Origin: Schmidtea nova
Taxonomy: Eukaryota
NCBI GenBank assembly: GCA_044892505.1
Contig: CM097882.1
Coordinates: 161,200,001 to 161,264,000 of the forward strand
Reading direction: 5' to 3'
Length of the DNA stretch: 64,000 bases
The translations under genes and the position numbers were made by a program. Shown here piece by piece: positions 1 through 47,399 of this stretch (its first letter is position 1; every line of letters starts with the position of its first letter). The notes under the pieces were generated by a model that searched no databases, was not told where the DNA came from, and was given only the letters and a program-made list of their open reading frames with translations.

Positions 1-1473
1 TCCACAACATCCACATCCTTTACTCTTTCTAAGCATGCATATTTGTCTTGTCTGTGATCTGGTCATTATTCTCCTTTCCTCTGGTTCTTTTGTCGCAGTT
101 TTTTCTACTCGTTTAAATCTACACACGTTCACGTATATCGGTCGAACTAACGGATTGTTGACTAATTTTACCCGGATGTTATTTTCGCTAACAAATATGA
201 CTTCATATGGTCCTTTTCCCGTTCTCTGTAATTTTTTCGCTGTTCCTGGGATGATTTCCGGTGTTTCGACTATCACCCAATCGCCTAGCTTGAACTGATG
301 TTCGTGTACATTTCTCTTTTTGTCGTGTAGTTCTTTGTAGCTCTCTTGATTGAATCGTATATTCATACCTGCAACTTTCCAAATTTCTTGCATTCGCTCC
401 TTGAATTTTGTTACGTAATCGTCGATTTCCATATATTGTGATATTGGTGGTTGATATTCAAGATCCATTGGCATGTTACATTCTCTGCCGTACATCAATT
501 TAAACGGACTCATTTTTGTTGCCGAGTGAATCGACATACGGTATGCCATTAGACATAGATTCACATATTCATCCCAATCCTTTTGGTGTTTACTGACATA
601 ATTTGACATCATCTCAATCAATATTCCGTTAAATCTCTCCGTTTGTCCATTTGTTTGGGGATGATATGGTGAAGTTCTCAACTTAGCAATTCTGAAATAA
701 TTGGTAACTTCGTTGATGATCTCGCTCATAAAATTTGTTCCTTGATCGGTTAATATTTGTTTTGGTGTTCCATATCTACAACATATTTCTTCGACTAATA
801 TTTTGGCTATTGTTCTAGCTTTCTGATCTGGCATTGCAAATGCTTCTGGGAATTTTGTTAAGTAATCAGTTATTACTAATATATAAACATTTCCATGATT
901 CGTTTCTGGTAATGGTCCTACTACATCCATTGCGATCATTGTCATAGGTTCTGGTGGAATTGGCATTGGTTTTAAAGGTGTTTTCATTTTACTGCCAGTG
1001 CTTTTTCGCGTTGCACATATTAAACAATTCCTAATCCATTCTTTCACATCTTCTCCAATATTTGGCCAGAAATACTTCTGTTTTAATCTCGCTTCCGTTT
1101 TCTTAGCTGACATATGTCCACCAAGTTTTCCATCGTGGTATTGCATCAAGATGTCTTTCCTTCTACTTTCTGGTAAACACATGAGTCTTTTTTCTCCATC
1201 CATTGCTAATAACCAGCCTTTTTCGATTGTATATTTGTGCCTGTTTTTCTCCATATGTTCCTTTAGTTGGCTGTTATGATCAAAGATTTTCATATCATTC
1301 CTATTCAAATATTCGATGATTAGTTTTAGCTCCTCATCTTCATTTTGTTCTTGTTGTAGTTTAGTGAAATCAATATCTTCTGCGATTATCATACATATTC
1401 GCCTGACATCTTTATCCATTAGTTCCTCAAACATAAATCTTGACATGCAATCCGCATTTGCATTCGCTTTCCC
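1..1473 (-). CDS. pol: pol C-terminal part: end of RNase H plus integrase; in frame after a premature TAA and open to the window edge
   Basis: My translation gives GKANANADCMSR, the HHCC zinc motif (YHDGKLGGH...WIRNCLIC), IAMDVVGP, LTDQGTNF, SPYHPQTNGQTERFN and GPY. It is absent from the ORF track because it has no stop in the window. Confidence 0.93.
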
Positions 1474-3609
1474 TTACTTGAACTTTATATATGGCGAATA
1501 TTCTTGTAGCTGCATTGCCCATCTCATTAATCTGCTTGACGCTTCTTTGTGCTGGCCTAACCATACTAACGGTTGATGATCTGTTGTGATGTATATTTCG
1601 TGACCCCATAATAGATATTTGAAATGTTTAATCGCCTGAATGATTGCTAGCGCTTCTCTTTCCGTTACCGAGTAATTCTTCTCGTGTTTTCGAAAGGTTT
1701 TGCTGTAATATCCTATCACTCTTTCTCTCCCATCTTCATCCCATTGTCCTAGTACGGCTCCTGACGCGTATCCACTTGCGTCGGTTGCTAATAGAAATGG
1801 TTTTTTGAAGTCTGGGTGTACTAATATTGGCGATGAAATTAACTTATCTCGCAACTCTTCAAATGCATTTTGTTGCTCTCTTTCCCAGATAAATGGTGTA
1901 TCTTTCTTGACTAGCTCTTGTACAGGCTTTGCAATTCCGGCATAGTTTTTAATAAATTTCCGATAATAACCACATAGTCCTAAAAATTCTTGTACTTGGG
2001 TTATGGTTTTCGGTATAGGACAATTTTTTATCTTTTCGATATTTCTTGGGTCCGGCTCTTTTCCTTTAGCTGATACAATGTGACCCAAAAAGGTAACTTT
2101 TGGTTTTGCCCAATCACATTTTGATGGTTTCAATTTTAATTTCCATTGCCTTAATCGGATGAATACGTTTTGGATATCTTGTAAATGTTGTTCAAACGTA
2201 CCCGAGTAAATCAATAAATCATCAATATATACCATACATTGTTTTATCCCGTGAGTTACAAAATTCATGCATCTTTGAAATGACGCAGGTGCATTAGTTA
2301 AACCAAATGGCATCTTCTTGAACTGGTACAGATCTTTTCCGATGGTAAACGCTGTTTTCTCTCTGTCCTCTTCTTTCACTTTAATCTGCCAGTAACCGCT
2401 TTTCAAATCTAATGACGTGAAGTATGCTGCACCATGTAATGTTTGTAACATTTCGTTGATATCTGGTAACGGGTATGTATCTCTCTTGGTTACTGCGTTC
2501 AATTGTCGATAATCAATACAAAATCGTTGGGTACCATCTTTCTTTTTTACCATTACTACTGGAAATTGCCATGGTGAACAACTTGGTTCAATCACATCTG
2601 CGTCTAACATCTTTTGCACTTCGGCTTCGGCCACTGCTTTCTGCGCCTCTGCTAGTCGATATGGTCTCAATGTGATCGGTGTTTCGTCTGTTAGGGGAAT
2701 AGTATGTTGAGTTACGTCACTCGTTCCCAAGTCTAAATCTGATGCTGCAAAGATGTCTTTAAATTCTAACAATACTGTTTTTAGTTTTTCTTTTTCAATA
2801 TCGTTTAAAATTTCACTGTCGATTACCCATAACTCTTCCACTTTACTCTCATCCTCTTGAATTTTAGGTAATTCAATATTCATCATCGGGGTTAATTTTC
2901 CCAATCTCTCATTTTCGTAAATGATTTTGTCTTCCTCATCGAAATTGGTGATGTTGATTGGTATTTCGTTTTCTTTATTGACGTTCACTATTTCTCTTGC
3001 CAATGGTAACTCTTTTCTCATCTCAAAATTTTGATTTGGCTCAAATATCATTTCCCCGACTGCCGTGTCTTTTACTTTGGTGAAACATATCATTTGCGTT
3101 CTTCCTGGTACGACAATTTTCTTTGAACACCTTACCTCCGTTTTCATTGAACAGGTTTGTCCGCTTTTATCTTTCAATCTCATCGTACTTAAATCGATAA
3201 CAATCTCCTTTAATAATTCTGGCATTAAATCTGTCCCAATGATACATGAGGCTCCCAATTGTTTTATTACAGCTAAATAAGTAGACATCTCTACATCTTT
3301 ATACTTAATATCTGACCATATTTTCCCAATAACTTTGACTGATTCTTTATTGCACGTGACCACATCCATTGGTGCTTCTTCAATGCAAGGCCATAACATG
3401 CCTGGTATCATATTCATGTTTATTGCTGATATATTTGCACCGGTATCTATCATTGCATCCATTTCAACACCGTTGATTTCAATGGCAATAGTAAGGGTTG
3501 GTCCAGCTGATGTTCTATTGTCATTGTTGCTATTGTCATTGTTTCTAGATTTTTCTCTTCGCTTTGTGGTCTGTTTAGTATTGTTGGGTCTGGTCTGTTT
3601 AGTATTGCC
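1474..3609 (-). CDS. pol: pol: aspartic protease, reverse transcriptase, RNase H (frame open from 3609, first ATG 3462, TAA at 1474-1476)
   Basis: Motifs DTGA (protease), RFCIDYRQLN, LDLKSGYWQ, MPFGLTNAPASFQ, YIDD (RT), and LATDAS / TEREALAII / TDHQPL (RNase H). Confidence 0.97.
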   Translation of the reverse strand, partial: GNTKQTRPNNTKQTTKRREKSRNNDNSNNDNRTSAGPTLTIAIEINGVEMDAMIDTGANISAINMNMIPGMLWPCIEEAPMDVVTCNKESVKVIGKIWSDIKYKDVEMSTYLAVIKQLGASCIIGTDLMPELLKEIVIDLSTMRLKDKSGQTCSMKTEVRCSKKIVVPGRTQMICFTKVKDTAVGEMIFEPNQNFEMRKELPLAREIVNVNKENEIPINITNFDEEDKIIYENERLGKLTPMMNIELPKIQEDESKVEELWVIDSEILNDIEKEKLKTVLLEFKDIFAASDLDLGTSDVTQHTIPLTDETPITLRPYRLAEAQKAVAEAEVQKMLDADVIEPSCSPWQFPVVMVKKKDGTQRFCIDYRQLNAVTKRDTYPLPDINEMLQTLHGAAYFTSLDLKSGYWQIKVKEEDREKTAFTIGKDLYQFKKMPFGLTNAPASFQRCMNFVTHGIKQCMVYIDDLLIYSGTFEQHLQDIQNVFIRLRQWKLKLKPSKCDWAKPKVTFLGHIVSAKGKEPDPRNIEKIKNCPIPKTITQVQEFLGLCGYYRKFIKNYAGIAKPVQELVKKDTPFIWEREQQNAFEELRDKLISSPILVHPDFKKPFLLATDASGYASGAVLGQWDEDGRERVIGYYSKTFRKHEKNYSVTEREALAIIQAIKHFKYLLWGHEIYITTDHQPLVWLGQHKEASSRLMRWAMQLQEYSPYIKFK

Positions 3610-6600
3610 GGGTCAATCATTGCCCAATTTGGTTCGTAATGTGCTGGGTAGAAATTTGGCATTGGTAACATTCGTAGTCCAGCTCGTGTTTTTTCTCTCA
3701 CTGTTCCTGGTCTTTGTGGGTTAGGGTATGTCATTGGTGGTAAATTTTGACCTTCCCATTGTTTTGATTTTTCTGCTTCCCATATTGGTGCGGTACCATT
3801 TGATCCGGAGTTCGTTCCTCCTTGATTTCCTTTGTCATCGTTATCACTATTGTCATCATCCGAATCTTTCCTTCGGTTATCCCACCATCTTTTCCATCCA
3901 CTACGTCTGGTTTCTTTATATTTCGTTTTCTCTGCTTCGTTTTTCATAATGAATCTAAATTTTCTACCGATCTCTTCGTCGGTTCCTTTCATCTTGGTCA
4001 GTATTCCAATTAGCCTCTTTATTCTATGAATGTCTTTTGAATGCCCATGCAATACCATAGTTTTAGCCAAAAACGGTAGGAATCCAAGTGCCATTTTCCA
4101 ATTGATTTGTCTCTCTCTTTTATAGATATCAAAACAAGCTAGCATCTGAGTTATAATAACTCTGACTATTTGAATGATTAGGATTATCCCTAATATTCCT
4201 GCCATCATCTGTCCAAATACTAAGAATCTTCCCCACATGGCTTTCATCATATTATTGGTTGCGTGTTTAAAATGTTCTGGTGACAACAATAACTCGTAGT
4301 TCGGACTTCCCACGAAATTTGTTCCACCGGTTATGGCTATAATATTTGATAATACTGCTTGTCTTTGGGTTGGAAATAGTATATGCTTTCTCGCTGCTTC
4401 TAAATCTGCATCTCTGTACACTCCACTGTGTGAAATATCTATGGGTTTAAATTCTATTTCTGTTGTTAACTCTGTTAATCCAAATCGTTTAGGTGCTGAT
4501 ACAATTTGCCGATTTGGAAAAACTACCCATTTTGCATTTCCCATGTCATACATTGGTCCATACGCATTACTGCAATTGAACTGATGGGGTTCGTAATTTG
4601 GTGGATTTATTATTCTCGTTACTGCTTGTACAAATCGACTTCTTCCCTTGTAGAATATTTCCAATTCGTTAGTACATCGGTTTTCTGGTATTCTTGGTCT
4701 TTCCGGTAGTCTTGCTATCTCTTTTTTGCATTTGTATGTATACATAACTTCTCCCACAATTCGACCAAAATGTCCTTCTTGCAGTGGTAATAGTGGTATT
4801 GCGTTATCTGGATTCGTTATAGCCATTGCTAATTTGGTTCTCAAGATTTCTCTGTTCAATATACAATCGTTTTGTATCAAATCATGATATACTTTCTCTG
4901 TGGTTGCCATACCTCTATGGTATAAGAAATCCATTTTATTATTTGCGTACAAATACGTTTTAATGTCCACTGTATCTGGTTTTGGTGCTGCTTCAGCTAT
5001 CACTGTTGTAGATAGGAAAATTCCTTTGTAATTCGTTTTTATTACTAGTCTTCCGCATTTACTGACGGTTTCACCTTTGATGAATCTCATTCCCACTCCT
5101 GGATCTTTTGATAAAATTGTTGTTGATATAATTGCTGTTGGTGTATTTACTAATTTAAGTTTTTCCGTCGTCTCTTTATGCTGGAATGTTCTTGTTCTTT
5201 TGAGCTGTTCCATTTCTTGTCTGGTTGAATCATCTTTGGGCTCGTCATAAACTTTTCCTAGTATTTCCTCGAATTCAGCTTCTTGTAATAACATTAGTCG
5301 ACATTTATTCGCATCTGCCTTATAAATCAATGTTGATGCACCGGTATTACACGAGGTATGTTCTGCAGAACAACTTGGGAATTTTCTCATTGATAGCGTG
5401 TCTGGATCAAAATATCCCGGATATGTTTCCAATTTCACTTGATACATCTCTATTACTACTACATTGCTGACCACTTTTCCTAATAGAGTGTATGCTCCTC
5501 CTTTACAACTTCCGTCTGGTTTATTGACGTATCCAGCTGCATAAACTCTTGTTATTTTAATTGCTCCTGGTTGGGCAGCTATTATTATGTTTCCTGCTAA
5601 CGATATCCGTTTTGAGGTAAACGCTTCATTGCACTTTTCGCTATCCAATGATATTACTGTTGATTCCATTCCTGGTTCGATAATTGTTGAATATGAATAT
5701 TGTCCACAGTAATACGCGAATAATTTTCTCGTAACCGTGCATTCTCTTATTTCTGCCTTGATGAGGTCTGATTCCTGATACACGTTGTAACTTATTTTAT
5801 TCACAATTTGTTCCAACTTTTTCGGCGTGGCTTGTTTACAATCTTCCGTATCTTTTAATGAATATTTCTCGCTAAGCTCGATTTTGTCACAATCGTATAC
5901 CACAAACGATGTTGCTCCCTTTATGCACATCATCCAAATTAATATTGTGGTCAATATCGCATTCATACTCTTCCCATATGTTCTTTGATCGCGAAAATTC
6001 ATTGATCCTTCGAATTCTGTTAATAATTCTCTCAACTTTACTTGCATGGTTTCCGTTTGATCTATTTTATCTACTGAGTTGATGAATGTTTTCCAACCTC
6101 CTTGTTTCATTACATACGGCTCTATCATTTTTTCAATGATTTCCGTTATTGTGAATATATGACCATTTGAACTGTATCTGGGTGTTCTCCGTTTGTACAA
6201 GACGATCATATTGTACATTAAATATGCCAAGCTTACTAAATATTTTGCTGGTTCGTTCGTATTGTTTGTCAGTTTTTCGATAATTTCTTTCATTTCTGCA
6301 GGATTTCTCAACGTCATTCGTACTTTTCCTTCGATGATTTTTGAGATTATTGGTTTAATCGTTATCCACAGTTGTTTGGCTTCTTGTTGGATATGGTCTC
6401 TTTTTAACGCTCTTTTTATTTCTGGGTTTGCCAATGCAAGCATATCAGATACTAATTCATTTATCCATCGGATTCCTTGTTCGGTTATTGGTGTATTACC
6501 TTTCACTTGATTTGCAACTGACACTAGTTTGCTTACTTTTAGTTGTAATTGTTCCGTCTTGCTTACTGATGTTGGTTTTTGATTCCTTTCTGTTTGATCT

Positions 6601-9600
6601 TTCGCCGGCCTCCCTCTTGGGCGTTTATCTATCGTCGTTCCAACTTCTCGTCTACTTAGCTGATTATTCGCGATTTCTCTCGATGTTGTCGCTCCTCTAT
6701 CTGCGATCCAATTACTCCATTCGTCAGTTGTAGAATTTTCTCTTGCTCGTTTTTGTACTTTTTCTCGGTCGGTTTCATCATCGGTTGCTGTGATTTTTTG
6801 CCGTTTTACCCAAGGAATTCTCTGGTCATCGGTTGTTGTTTCATTTTCTATATTTGAGAATAAATCCCCTGAGTAAAATGCTGTTTCATCGTTTTCTCTA
6901 TTCGCAATATTTGTCAGTTCTTCTAATACGTCTTCATCAGTTGTTTCGACAATAATTTCACTTGCAGCTTCCGGTATTTCTGGTTCGTCTAAGTTTCCGA
7001 ACAATTTTCTCATTTGAGTTCGATTTCCCTCTTTTCTGATTAGTTCATTGCCTGCAATTTTAGAAACAGTTAAATGATTACTTGTTCCGATTCGTATCGG
7101 GGTTACACCAATTTCTATCTCATCATCGAGTGATCTTCCTTCGTACTGTAGATGAAATGGTAATTCAAATGGCAGTTTCTTTTTAATCTCTTTTATTTTC
7201 ATGGTTGCTAATACTTCCATTTCTTCCTTTCCAAAGTCTGGAAAATAGATTTTTAATCCACATTTTTGCGGTTCGTCACTTTCCCATTCCATTTGCCTCC
7301 ATTTTCTTCTAAGCTCATCGAATTGTTCTGGATACCAAGTGTATACTCGTCCATATTCCTCGATTTCCTTCACGAGCATTGTCATGGTTAATCTATCCTT
7401 ACCATTCTCGAGAATCCATTTTGCTAATTCGACTACCGCTCTTCGTTGATTTTTGGCACCCTTTTCTAAAATATCAATTAACTGTCTACTTTTTTGGGCT
7501 TCAGTTCTCTCTAATACTTCAGGGTCCATCAGTTCATCCATATCTACAGGACGTAATCTCGAGGTCGTTTCTTGTTTTCTCAGCACGCTGATTCTGGGAA
7601 TTGTCAGCTTTTCCCTTACGTCTTCCTCAATTTTGCATGAAACATAAATATCTCCTTCACTTTGATATCGAGATTTTTTATCTAATAGCAAGTGTTGCAA
7701 GATAAATTTTGGTGCTCCTGATGCTATATTTTCCTCTTTTCCTGGTTTATGATAGCAGCTGCAGAGCTTTTCTGGATAAATTTCTTCACTATGACCCTTC
7801 TCTGAATTGTAGGATGATCCTATAGACAATGTTACTTTTTGATCGAACGGCCATGTTAATTCCTCGTCATTGATCCCTTTACAGATGATATAAAATAATG
7901 ACGTATGAGTTCCTTTACCAACTCCATCTCCGTTTGGATAAATTCTCATTTTTAATTTATATCCGCCTGGGTAAGTGTAAAATTGTGGGCTTGTCAATCG
8001 TGTTACTTCACCCTCCTTTGCTGCTCTCACTTTATCTGCCCAATTTGAAATTCTCCATTTGAATGGTGCAAGATATTTCTCTTCGCATATGTTCTCGTCG
8101 ACTTCCAAATGTTTCCCAGTTATTTCTGATGGTTCGTAAATCTCATGGGTTTCCTCATATAACAGTTCCTCAGGTATTCGTTCTGGTTCACATGTTACCC
8201 ATCTATCCTCCACATTTGGTTGTTCCCATCTGTATCGATTTTCTAGTTCTATCCATGTCTTTATCCACGGCGTTGGTTTACAATCTCCATAATGAAGAGG
8301 TTTTATTTTCCCCTTTATTTCATTATCCGCTCTCCAAAAATTATATAAATCGATTATCTGGTCTAATTTTCCGACCATTTTTCTTTTAAATCTCCTCACG
8401 TGACCATCGTCTTTCTCTGGTTCGTCCATTGCCCATATTTTAACTGTTTGACCGTCTTCCCAAATACCCAGTTTATATAAGGGTGTCTGATCATCCTTTT
8501 CTAATACATGTTTATTGTACACGATTATTACATCTTCTATTAATCCGTCATCACTATTTTGTTTCACGTTATGCATAATTTTCTCATCGATTATGCGTAT
8601 GAATTCGTCTACCGTACAATCTGGTTCTATTTCAATTGTTTGTTCGTCTCCACTTGGCAACGTTAGATTGACTTTTATCGTTTCCGCTCGATTCTTTGAT
8701 CTCTGATAGCCGCCATATTGACTTATTAATTCGATTGCTCGTTTATCATCTAATCTCACTAACTCGGTATCTCGTACGAACTCTACAAATCTCTTCATTG
8801 ATGCTGGTCTTCTTCTATTTATACTGTCGATCATTTTCCTCGTCTGGTCTATTGCTTGTGTCGAAAGCATTAATCGATTTTCCCATATTGCTTGTTCGGC
8901 CAATTTTAATAATTTTGGTCCGATTTCATAATCGTATCCATCTCCAATTCTTGTCAGTAGTTTCATCACCGTTTCTTCAATCGCGTTCTTCTTTAACGTT
9001 AAGATATTCAACTCGTTCGGCCATATCATAGCATCTACTAGATGTATTCCCTTTTTGATTCGCCAATTATTCAAATAAAGATAATCGTTTTTAAAACTGC
9101 TACCCATTTTCTCTTGCATCCAGTCATATAATGCGTTAGTATTTGGGTCGTTTATTTTTATTCCTAATACATCGATTTCGGGGTGGTGTACTTCTATCGT
9201 ATACTCTTGAGTTGGCGTTTCTTTTAATTGCTTCTTGTATTCCGCTATTGAGTTGTTCCACTCTGCGGTGAATACTTGATTTTCTACCTGATTTGCTTGG
9301 GTGACTTCCTTCATAAACTTCTGATATACTTTTTCATCAATAAACTCCCGATTCTTCATGGCTAATTCAACCTTGCCTGTTACTTCTCCGATGATATTCC
9401 AATCGTCTTCACTTAGCAACGCGTTGCTTGATGTTTCGGTATCACTTTCTTCACTAGCCAAAGGTGCTTCTAAATTGTTGTTTTCCTCACTTGACGGAAA
9501 TAAATCGCCTCCTAAACTACTCACTTCGCTAATCTCGTCTTCTGGATCTGTTTGATCATCATTTCGCATTCTCATCATATTTATTTTATACACATTTTTA

Positions 9601-44441: not shown

Positions 44442-45447
44442 GTTGGATTTATTTGAAAAAGTATGTCGAAAAAAGTGAATATTAAAACAATGTCATTTAA
44501 ACTCTCATTCGATAAGTATCAAAGTTAATTAATTAAAATAAAAGAAATTTATAATCTAAGGCACTACAATGATAATCTCAAATATAAAGAGATTTTAAGA
44601 ATAATTTCAAAAACTTAAATAAATAATTTAAAATTTGTACCTCACTATTATTAAATGCATGTAAGCAAAATTTCAAGTTTGATAGTATCCTGTCAAATTG
44701 TGGAAAGAGAAAGCAAAATTTTATTTATGAATATGAGTAAACGAGTTTTAGATTACAACCACCATGACTGACGATACTGTTAACTATATAAGGGAAATTA
44801 CATTAAAAAAATTGCCAGTATTTGGTCGAAAATAATTAATTTGAGATAATACAATATATATAAATTATAATATCAAAGTTTTCTAACTCAATAAAATTAT
44901 GGACGTTTATTCATAATTCAATATATGATTTGGTTCGATTTTCTAACACCAGAATACTTTTCCTAATGTCCAATTTGAGTCTGGCTCGTACAATTTTTAT
45001 GTTTATTTTTATTTTTTCCTGTAGTATTTAATAAATAAAATTCTTTATTTTGCTGTAATAAAATTTCTTTTAAATAATCTTTTCAGGCACATAATTAATT
45101 TTAATAATAATTTTAATAATAATAATCTATTTAAGTAAAACTACAAGTTGTTAAATCTAAAATTATTCATAGCTTTTAAATCGGCTTAATGAAGTTCAGT
45201 CATCCATATAATTTATTTTTATAATTATATTTCAATTCAATAAAGCTCATTTCGATAAAAACAAAATCTGAATTTCCCAAGTAAAAGTAATGGGAATCTT
45301 AGAAATATTTGTCATAAAAAAATCAAAAGTCTTTAAAAACAGAAGCTCTAAAATAAAAGAAATAACTTCAAGGCTGAAGGATAATGTAATTGGAGTTCAG
45401 AACATTACAAATACAAATACACATAAAAATGTTTCTTGTTTTTAATT

Positions 45448-45675
45448 TCAATAATATTTCTCCTTTCCGTAACTGTCATATCCGTATTTGTCATATTTGT
45501 CATATTTCTCAACTTTATGGTATTTGTCGTGCTTTCCATATTTGTCGTATTTTTCATGCTTTCCGTATTTATCGTATGTGTCGTATTTGTCCTTCTTTTC
45601 GTATTTGTCGTACTTTTCATAGTATTCTTCTGCAATGACCATAGCGACGAGAAGTGCCAAAATGAAGAGCTTCAT
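45448..45675 (-). CDS. Secreted Tyr/Lys/Asp-rich repeat peptide, eggshell-protein-like (copy 2)
   Basis: Near-identical to 22753-22974 (D16E plus a 2-aa GY insertion); shared flanks and TATA at 45722-45729. Confidence 0.85.
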   Translation of the reverse strand: MKLFILALLVAMVIAEEYYEKYDKYEKKDKYDTYDKYGKHEKYDKYGKHDKYHKVEKYDKYDKYGYDSYGKEKYY

Positions 45676-47399
45676 GTTTGATTGAGAAGATTTGTGTGTT
45701 TTGGCTGTAGATTTTCAAAGGTATTTATATGGTTATTGAAAGAAATTTTAAATCGACCTTTGATGTTACAATCTTTTATTACAATCTATTGTTACAAGTT
45801 GTTATTCAAAACTTTAATCTCTCTATAGCTAATCTGATAATTTTTGGAATTTTTAAGCAAAAAACCTTTACTTGGATTTTTTGAGATTTACCGACTGTAA
45901 TGAAAATACTAAAGAAGCAAATTACAACTTATTAAGTTTATTTGATTATTTCAACTTTAACTATATTTTTGTGTTAATTTTAAAATTGACTTAAAATTTT
46001 TAATTTAAGACAAATATTTTGGATTTAGATAAAATAATAGAACAATATGAAATTATTTTTTTGAATTGAATTATGACTAATAACAATAATTTAATCAAAA
46101 AATAATTATAATAATTATTTTTGAATATTAACGTTTAGTACTAACGCCTGACTCCTCGTTCTCTTTATTTAAAATTAACAAATCACCTAGCACAATCACT
46201 TTTATTTGATAAAGCATAATAATTTATACTGTCAATAACACTTTTGCCTATTCTCTCGCCGCGCTAGGGTGAATGTCCAAATGAAAAATAATCTTTTTTT
46301 TGTACACAGAATGTATTCGATTTCCTGATGCTACTACACTGTCTTCGGTTCTTTAACTTTTTTTCTTCTAATATTTTGAACGTCTGTTCGACCAACTAGC
46401 AACTTTCATAATTTTATCTGAGTTTTTATAATGACTCCTGTCGCTCGAGTTGACTGGGCTGTAATTTGAATTTTGACGGCAATCACTAGTTTTATATTTA
46501 TATTGAGAACTTAATCAAATTACTTCTGGAGCTTTCCTTAAAATAGATTAAATCATTTTGTTGATCCCTGAGGTTCATCTTATCACTCGGGTTTTTCATT
46601 TGACCACGGGATTTTTCGATTATTACTTAAGTCGATGGTAATTGAGTTAGTTGTTATTCACCAGGGTTTCTTCTAAATCATCCAATTTTTCAGGGTAAGT
46701 AGATAAATTTGTTGATGACTCGGGTTTTCATTAGGTAATTAGTTTTTTAATTAGTTTGTTTTCTTAATATTTATTTCTGAGGGCCCCTCTTTTTTTGTCT
46801 TTGTAACATTATCAACGTTTCATTGTCTATTTTAATTTAACCAAATGCGTCAAATGCTTTTTTTTCATAATTCTTTGAAATCTTATTTCAAAACTTTATA
46901 ATTAATTTTACTTTAAAATAATTTACTTGAAATCAGTTTTTTGAAATTTTACCCACACTCAGATTTCCCAAACAATTTAGTATTTATTTTTAAAATTTTC
47001 AATTATATCATTTCAACTTGGAGTTTGCCTTATTTTATCCTTTTTTATTAATTTTTAAATATTATGTCTTTGAAAAATTCTCCATGTTTTATATTTTAAT
47101 TTACCCACATATTTCATAAATTTAGTACTTTTAAATTTAATACAAAAATTTATAATAATTTTACTTTTAAATTTACTTGAAATTAGTTTTTTAAATTTTA
47201 TCAACTCTCAGATTTGCCAAAAAAATAATTTAGTATTTATTTTTTTGAATATTCACATTGTCATTTCAACTCTGAGCTTGCTTTATTTTTCATTACTTTT
47301 TAAATATCGTGTTATTATTATGTATTTGTGCTTTATTGTCTATTCAAACATTTTTAATTTAACCACATGTTTAATACACCTTTTCTTAAATTGAGTACT

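Follow-up and report, generated by a model that had tools for sequence, protein, structure and literature searches.

How many Bcl-2 domains a retroelement carries, and what they might do for it, is the question raised by a 64,000-nucleotide stretch of the Schmidtea nova genome (GenBank assembly GCA_044892505.1, contig CM097882.1, positions 161,200,001 to 161,264,000 of the forward strand), referred to here, at its full length, as the window. It holds a gypsy long terminal repeat (LTR) retroelement, in which the open reading frame (ORF) running from Gag to Env (3450-11780, minus strand, 2,776 codons) carries all of the motifs under study. The initial annotation of this locus proposed two, possibly three, degenerate Bcl-2-like units, here called A, B and C. 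The number of captured Bcl-2 domains in the element appears to be one, unit B. As a whole, the stretch is likely to be a Burro-type polyprotein region in which this single domain stands before the signal of Env, with A and C as helical adaptors.

The quoted motifs were all found in place, on the minus strand and in that one frame: LLTRIGDGYD (8931-8960) and ISQYGGY (8706-8726) in unit A, WILENG (7401-7418) in unit C, and YVMKQGGWKTF (6084-6116), the Bcl-2 homology 2 (BH2) motif of unit B. The chance of at least one match was estimated from 2,000 shuffles of the 2,776-residue frame, using patterns composed after inspection of the sequence and without correction for the number tried. It was 0.0025 for the BH2 pattern of unit B ([WY][IVL]xxxGGW), 0.014 for the BH3 pattern of unit A (LxxIGDx-hydrophobic; 0.035 for a looser form that includes the first hydrophobic position), 0.048 for the WILENG pattern (W[IVL]xx[NQH]G) and 0.25 for GG[WY], which occurs three times in the frame, once within the MATH domain. 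By this measure the BH2 of unit B clearly exceeds chance and the BH3 of unit A does so mildly; ISQYGGY and WILENG are borderline.

Unit B and its relatives in sister families

Unit B (6051..6563, minus strand; residues 1740-1910 of the ORF) is read as a degenerate domain of the Bcl-2 family with a BH2 motif, a reduced BH1 and an extra N-terminal helix. Its homology to Bcl-2 is very probable, and is transitive and positional, not structural: alignments and profiles connect unit B to the domains of sister families, and these in turn match Pfam and Bcl-xL, so that unit B appears to be Bcl-2-derived. A genome search with PF00452 (1,679 candidates, 150 of which were scored) returned host Bcl-2 genes plus many copies of other elements, whose translations contain a Bcl-2 domain, a linker, a hydrophobic stretch and then an Env 36-37% identical to that of the window. 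Three sister families were found (L046 with L050, which is family 2; L047; and L093), the window element being family 1. Their Bcl-2 domains score 33.4, 34.9 and 23.7 bits in Pfam, against a cut-off of 31.4; the family 3 domain matches Bcl-xL (E 1.8e-6), and the sister domains reach 96.5% in hhalign against a host Bcl-2 profile. Unit B aligns over its full length with the domains of families 2 and 3 (z 6.2 and 4.6), with none of 300 shuffles scoring as high. Two profiles that exclude family 1, one of eight host genes and one of five sister domains, were compared with 131 polyprotein windows; the top seven windows for the host-gene profile and the top ten for the sister-domain profile overlap unit B, and the sister-family profile gives unit B an E of 2.7e-5, the top of the 131. 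No window of unit A or C is among the 14 best shown for either profile. A 13-row profile matches Bcl-xL with E 1.4e-6. In these alignments YVMKQGGW falls on WIxxxGGW, the BH2 Trp being replaced by Tyr, and the BH1 site reads NEPAK with NWGR absent, which upholds the initial view of unit B as a Bcl-2 homologue that retains BH2 and lacks NWGR. An NWGR BH1 is not required of divergent viral members of the family, and the helix order in a low-confidence model of unit B appears to fit a Bcl-2 pattern.

Other results pull the opposite way. Taken alone, unit B matches the Pfam Bcl-2 family with E 0.1, over BH1-BH2; no Bcl-2 chain is among the 41 PDB sequences that it matches, the best of which is the CBP bromodomain (E 0.01); and hhalign gives it 17% against the sister domains and 2.4% against host Bcl-2. 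The AlphaFold model of unit B (predicted local distance difference test score, pLDDT, 50.6; predicted template modelling score, pTM, 0.34) has no recognisable Bcl-2 bundle, and fold searches with this poor model yielded no significant match.

In all four families the BH2 Trp is followed, after 37-48 residues, by a hydrophobic stretch that ends just ahead of [AV]YDC. In the window this stretch is the internal signal for Env (5910..5966, minus strand), identified as a hydropathy peak and standing in the same order in four of four families. The initial annotation had the Env signal following the BH2 of unit B; it does not follow directly, 43 residues lying between the two. The sister elements (L046/L050, L047 and L093) are abundant gypsy families that encode Gag, a helical domain, a ubiquitin-like domain, Bcl-2 and Env in one frame of about 2,990-3,080 residues, which in family 2 also includes Pol. 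No MATH domain was seen in them, and their Bcl-2 domains have degenerated less than that of the window. Behind the family 2 polyprotein lies an 869-residue frame with no Pfam match (L050:1156-3765, minus strand). The host itself has at least a dozen Bcl-2-family loci (L016-L024, L027, L035, L037, L041 and L044), several of which are divergent and themselves lack NWGR; from their translations, Bak-like and Bok-like genes are presumably present. A tree of the Bcl-2 domains singled out no donor lineage.

In that tree the family 1 domain forms the longest branch, at 3.2 changes per column. Together with the lost BH1 and the Trp to Tyr change in BH2, this would suit a relic, retained as no more than a folded spacer ahead of the Env signal, or else a pro-death or pore-forming protein that aids particle release. 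Selection speaks against such a role, which we regard as unlikely. Ratios of non-synonymous to synonymous polymorphism (pN/pS), calculated from distinct variants relative to the window copy and from small, uncorrected counts, are 0.15 for unit B (26 copies), 0.22 for unit A (12 copies) and 0.14 for unit C (26 copies), compared with 0.06 for MATH, 0.10 for Env, 0.33 for the acidic linker and 0.46 for the linker between BH2 and the signal. Unit B is under purifying selection like its neighbours: its ratio is near that of Env and below those of the linkers, and the domain has been kept in four families.

Units A and C among ubiquitin-like domains

The accessory region of the polyprotein is ordered as ubiquitin-like domain 1, helical unit A, ubiquitin-like domain 2, MATH, helical unit C, ubiquitin-like domain 3, acidic linker, AT-hook, Bcl-2 (unit B), signal and Env. 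Unit A (8688..8990, minus strand) is an all-helical module of ~100 residues between two ubiquitin-like domains, with five helices in a low-confidence model, and a BH3-like motif match (hydrophobic-xxx-LxxIGDxY; 8931..8969, minus strand) lies at its start. Unit C (7275..7538, minus strand), which holds WILENG, is a module of ~85 residues, modelled with low confidence as four helices of the helical-hairpin type. Judged by sequence, both appear to be small helical adaptors beside ubiquitin-like neighbours and not Bcl-2.

The initial annotation had named lack of motif conservation across family members as grounds for rejecting its proposal, and for A and C the motifs are not conserved. P0003, the one diverged relative found (39% identical over 712 columns; 39-41%), has both units, and in its alignment LLTRIGDGYD becomes IWQKIQILYT, ISQYGGY becomes IAKYGEH and WILENG becomes WIIDSC. 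The proposed likeness of WILENG to the WIQENG of Bcl-xL is lost in this way, and no GGW follows WILENG. Neither unit matched Pfam Bcl-2, PDB sequences or local Bcl-2 profiles, hhalign gave unit A 0.09% against the host Bcl-2 profile, and neither blast nor hhalign found a counterpart of A or C in families 2-4.

Size adds to this. With ubiquitin-like neighbours on both sides, ~100 residues are left for unit A, and MATH and the probable ubiquitin-like domain 3 leave ~85 for unit C. Ubiquitin-like domain 1 (8991..9209, minus strand; 73 residues) fills the space that helix 1 of a Bcl-2 fold in unit A would need. Its assignment comes from a strand-strand-helix-strand-strand pattern in a low-confidence model and from an Atlas search with the corresponding segment of P0003, in which ubiquitin/SUMO-like clusters appear in five of seven feature rows (0.83-0.87, leads only) and the ubiquitin family is among the clusters of ten of ten structure rows, with scores below the bar; a Pfam scan gave no match. 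Ubiquitin-like domain 2 (8421..8687, minus strand) has weak Pfam beta-grasp matches (FERM_f0, E 0.008; OTU1_UBXL, E 0.012) and a strand-strand-helix pattern in a low-confidence model. The probable domain 3, between MATH and Bcl-2 (7047..7274, minus strand), is suggested by a similar strand-strand-helix pattern, again modelled with low confidence, and is without a match in Pfam or PDB sequences; a sister family has Rad60-SLD (Pfam E 0.0024) upstream of its Bcl-2 domain. The MATH domain, of TRAF type, was matched by Pfam at 7629..8063 (minus strand).

Could A, and perhaps C, be further degenerate Bcl-2 folds after all, making two or three units? The BH3 pattern of unit A is uncommon by chance (0.014-0.035), both units are predicted to be all-helical, and viral Bcl-2 folds can escape sequence search. 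The LxxIGDxY core is also fixed in 28 of 28 other copies (12 and 16), although these are all 97-99% identical and so little informative. A long AlphaFold model, with pLDDT 36.9 overall and 30-45 at unit A, is too poor to exclude a Bcl-2 fold for unit A: in it MATH correctly found TRAF6, unit C matched helical-hairpin proteins at a background-level Z, and unit A was hardly covered. The case against Bcl-2 in A and C rests instead on conservation, profiles and size, the folds being low-confidence models. The motifs are lost in P0003 with no profile signal to replace them, the segment ahead of unit A looks ubiquitin-like, the spacing from BH3 to GGY in unit A is 83 residues against 99 in host locus L016, both units are short for an eight-helix fold, and neither blast nor hhalign placed them in families 2-4. 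Further Bcl-2 folds in this element are therefore most unlikely.

A narrower possibility is that unit A has no Bcl-2 fold and that its motif is a family-specific, stand-alone BH3 mimic, which would bind host pro-survival Bcl-2 proteins or unit B. The full BH3 spacing lies on what is predicted to be a helix, and the two sites that vary among copies are both at x positions, these changes being too few for a test. P0003, however, keeps the hydrophobic spacing and not the Gly-Asp, as an ordinary amphipathic helix would, and we consider such a mimic quite unlikely.

The host element

By its layout, set against the published description, the element is assigned to the Burro-type giant gypsy LTR retroelements. 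It is 29,380 bases long and young, its 3,869-base LTRs being 99.74% identical (blastn, 5' versus 3' LTR). The 5' LTR (17098..20965, minus strand) has the ends TG...CA, and its blastn partner, the 3' LTR, lies beyond the start of the window at L049 1586-5453. Just inside the 5' LTR, at ~17068-17087 (minus strand), lies a possible primer-binding site, similar to the type that pairs with tRNA-Pro. At least 150 copies exist in the genome: a search with unit B as query gave 911 candidates, and all 150 that were scored are 98-100% identical to it. By hand count, ~70 of these 150 have open frames of 4,900-5,018 residues. In the window copy the frame is broken between Env and protease and a second time inside Pol (ORF list).

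Gag (10446..11318, minus strand) comprises a capsid domain and three CCHC knuckles (Pfam Retrotrans_gag, E 1.4e-5; zf-CCHC, E 1.1e-6; knuckle positions), and Env (4119..5909, minus strand), in frame with it, is a mononegavirus-type fusion glycoprotein (Pfam Monjiviricetes_fusion, E 1.4e-69). Pol (protease, reverse transcriptase, RNase H and integrase; 1..3612, minus strand; ORF list and Pfam) is in another frame and is split by a stop in the window copy. Beyond the window the polyprotein continues with ankyrin and FN3 repeats (Pfam). Past integrase, L049:6788-10000 (minus strand) has ankyrin repeats, another hydrophobic stretch that is signal-like and similar to that of Env, FN3 repeats and a transmembrane helix, and this part is possibly a second surface protein. 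An accessory ORF within the element (13997..14377, minus strand) encodes a RING finger (Pfam zf-C3HC4_3, E 5.6e-14), a Pfam type that is IAP/MDM2-like; its DNA is present in the upstream flanks of three of three other copies, with an open 108-residue ORF listed in two of the three. Upstream of unit B is an AT-hook-like motif (6591..6626, minus strand; Pfam AT_hook, E 0.061), and an RGRP motif also precedes the Bcl-2 domain in family 2. A 21-base tandem repeat in the element leader (12565-13024) differs in length among copies. Repeats common to both element flanks (L049:306-1062 and L105 against window 21647-23316 and 45343-45767) suggest that the element may have inserted into another repeated element.

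A BCL2-like motif in planarian Burro elements has been reported already (PMC6431247). Section 7 of that paper, on Burro/GYPSM1 of dugesiid planarians, cites Jurka 2007 and Grohme 2018 and describes a layout of MATH, a Ubi2/SUMO-like motif placed between MATH and BCL-2, the BCL2-like motif, Env between BCL2 and protease, and ankyrins; the accessory domains are proposed there, without test, to meddle with apoptosis and ubiquitination. As far as that section goes, the window element resembles Burro/GYPSM1 in its length of ~30 kb, a single ORF of ~5,000 residues, Gag with three CCHC knuckles, MATH, a ubiquitin-like domain between MATH and BCL2, the BCL2-like motif, a mononegavirus-like Env in frame between Gag and Pol, ankyrin repeats and an accessory ORF. 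It differs in having up to three ubiquitin-like domains, two more than the one in that account, as well as FN3 repeats, a second signal and transmembrane pair and a RING accessory ORF, whilst the BIR of the published elements was not found in the parts scanned and dUTPase was not detected by Pfam (the scans covered the ORFs, some short ones excepted). Elsewhere, BURRO1 RNA is recorded in S. mediterranea, at higher levels upon smedwi-2 knockdown, in the relevant part of PMC8532177, and Burro is mentioned in a passage of PMC11410931. The literature searched yielded no functional test of the Burro Bcl-2-like motif.

A possible role for the Bcl-2 domain

In the favoured explanation the internal signal would direct Env into the endoplasmic reticulum (ER), signal peptidase would cut on the luminal side, after the signal, and the hydrophobic stretch would remain on the upstream piece, thereby leaving unit B facing the cytosol on an ER membrane anchor, as in host Bcl-2 proteins. 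The Env signal is plausibly such an anchor, as the initial annotation had suggested. Cutting and anchoring are here supposed from general knowledge of polyprotein processing; in flaviviruses, including the core of hepatitis C virus, and in alphavirus polyproteins, the internal signal of the next glycoprotein stays as the C-terminal anchor of the preceding protein, an analogy of topology only, as these viruses are unrelated to Burro. Upstream, the element's protease, cutting near residue 1396, would free a ~560-residue piece made of C, ubiquitin-like domain 3, AT-hook, B and anchor. The lead for this is a repeated motif resembling RIN(M/A)(M/L), a candidate cleavage site: the ORF has five instances of the pattern [RKQHT]I[NCS][MVA][LMI] (residues 461, 487, 536, 732 and 1396), which is also found in the integrase frame (residues 25 and 477), P0003 and family 3, and was absent from four other sequences tested. 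Unit B would bind host pro-death Bcl-2 proteins and so damp host cell death during expression of the element, with the captured MATH and RING modules acting alongside it. That unit B is an anti-death decoy of this kind, restraining host pro-death Bcl-2 proteins, has in our estimate slightly less than an even chance.

Like the Bcl-2 family (PF00452; nearest solved match Bcl-xL), the domains of the window and sister elements have the core from helix 4 to BH2, the GGW and a downstream hydrophobic segment; unlike it, they lack NWGR and a canonical BH3 in helix 2, possess an extra N-terminal helix, are embedded in a polyprotein and have a 37-48-residue linker to the hydrophobic segment. The Bcl-2 homologues of herpes-, pox- and asfarviruses are, like unit B, captured and strongly diverged, whereas they are separate genes of DNA viruses and unit B, compared here by sequence and a poor model, is a polyprotein domain with the Env signal as its would-be anchor. 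At BH1, NWDR occurs at one locus only (fetched three times), the other sister sequences reading NRDR, NQDR, DKDK or DENR, and family 1 has lost the motif. Families 2-4 share a conserved extra helix before helix 1, [AS]E[KR]L[RKS]EIA (of AEKLREIAS/N type), which is BH3-like without the Asp and aligns with VSKLVSVAN in unit B; helix and domain together span L047:94-561 (minus strand), L046:106-588 (minus strand) and L093:4234-4701 (plus strand). This helix may occupy the groove of its own domain or work in trans.

Several points count against the favoured explanation. The erosion of BH1 in all four families makes a BH3 groove of the textbook kind less likely, as Bcl-xL needs both Gly and Arg of NWGR, and the linker from BH2 to anchor is longer than the 15-20 residues of host Bcl-2 proteins. 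The protease-site pattern was fitted to the data after their inspection, units A and C are covered by a single diverged relative, and purifying selection spans the whole polyprotein, making no special case for B.

A close rival, which alters only the last step of the favoured explanation, is that unit B keeps the Bcl-2 fold without binding BH3 helices, and serves as a scaffold that counters innate or ubiquitin signalling with the MATH, RING and ubiquitin-like domains; its N-terminal BH3-like helix may then close the groove. The models for this are poxviral A46, A52, B14 and K7, which are Bcl-2-fold signalling scaffolds, and the eroded BH1, the extra helix without the BH3 Asp and the co-occurrence in one element of a TRAF-type MATH domain and a RING all fit. 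Set against it are the well-kept BH2 (W..xxGGW) of families 2-4, the fixed position of the hydrophobic tail and, as section 7 of PMC6431247 has it, the additional BIR of published Burro elements, an apoptosis theme. We judge the scaffold possible, if on the unlikely side. Very unlikely, in our view, is a two-part death switch, in which the Bcl-2 domain, anchored by the cleaved Env signal, would be made one-to-one with the fusion protein and unit A, freed by the protease on a separate piece as a family-specific BH3 mimic, would engage B or host Bcl-2 proteins.

What is new here is that the element has one Bcl-2 domain and not three, that four abundant families all place it at the same point ahead of the Env signal, and that BH1 is eroded in every one of them, with an extra BH3-like helix preceding the domain. 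For experiments, the better preserved domains of families 2 and 3 would be more tractable than the unit B of the window. Should unit B prove to be an anti-death protein held on a membrane, cells expressing this retroelement, with its hundreds of copies, could have their death threshold set by it, a matter of relevance to cell turnover in planarians and to the survival of such elements when silencing fails.

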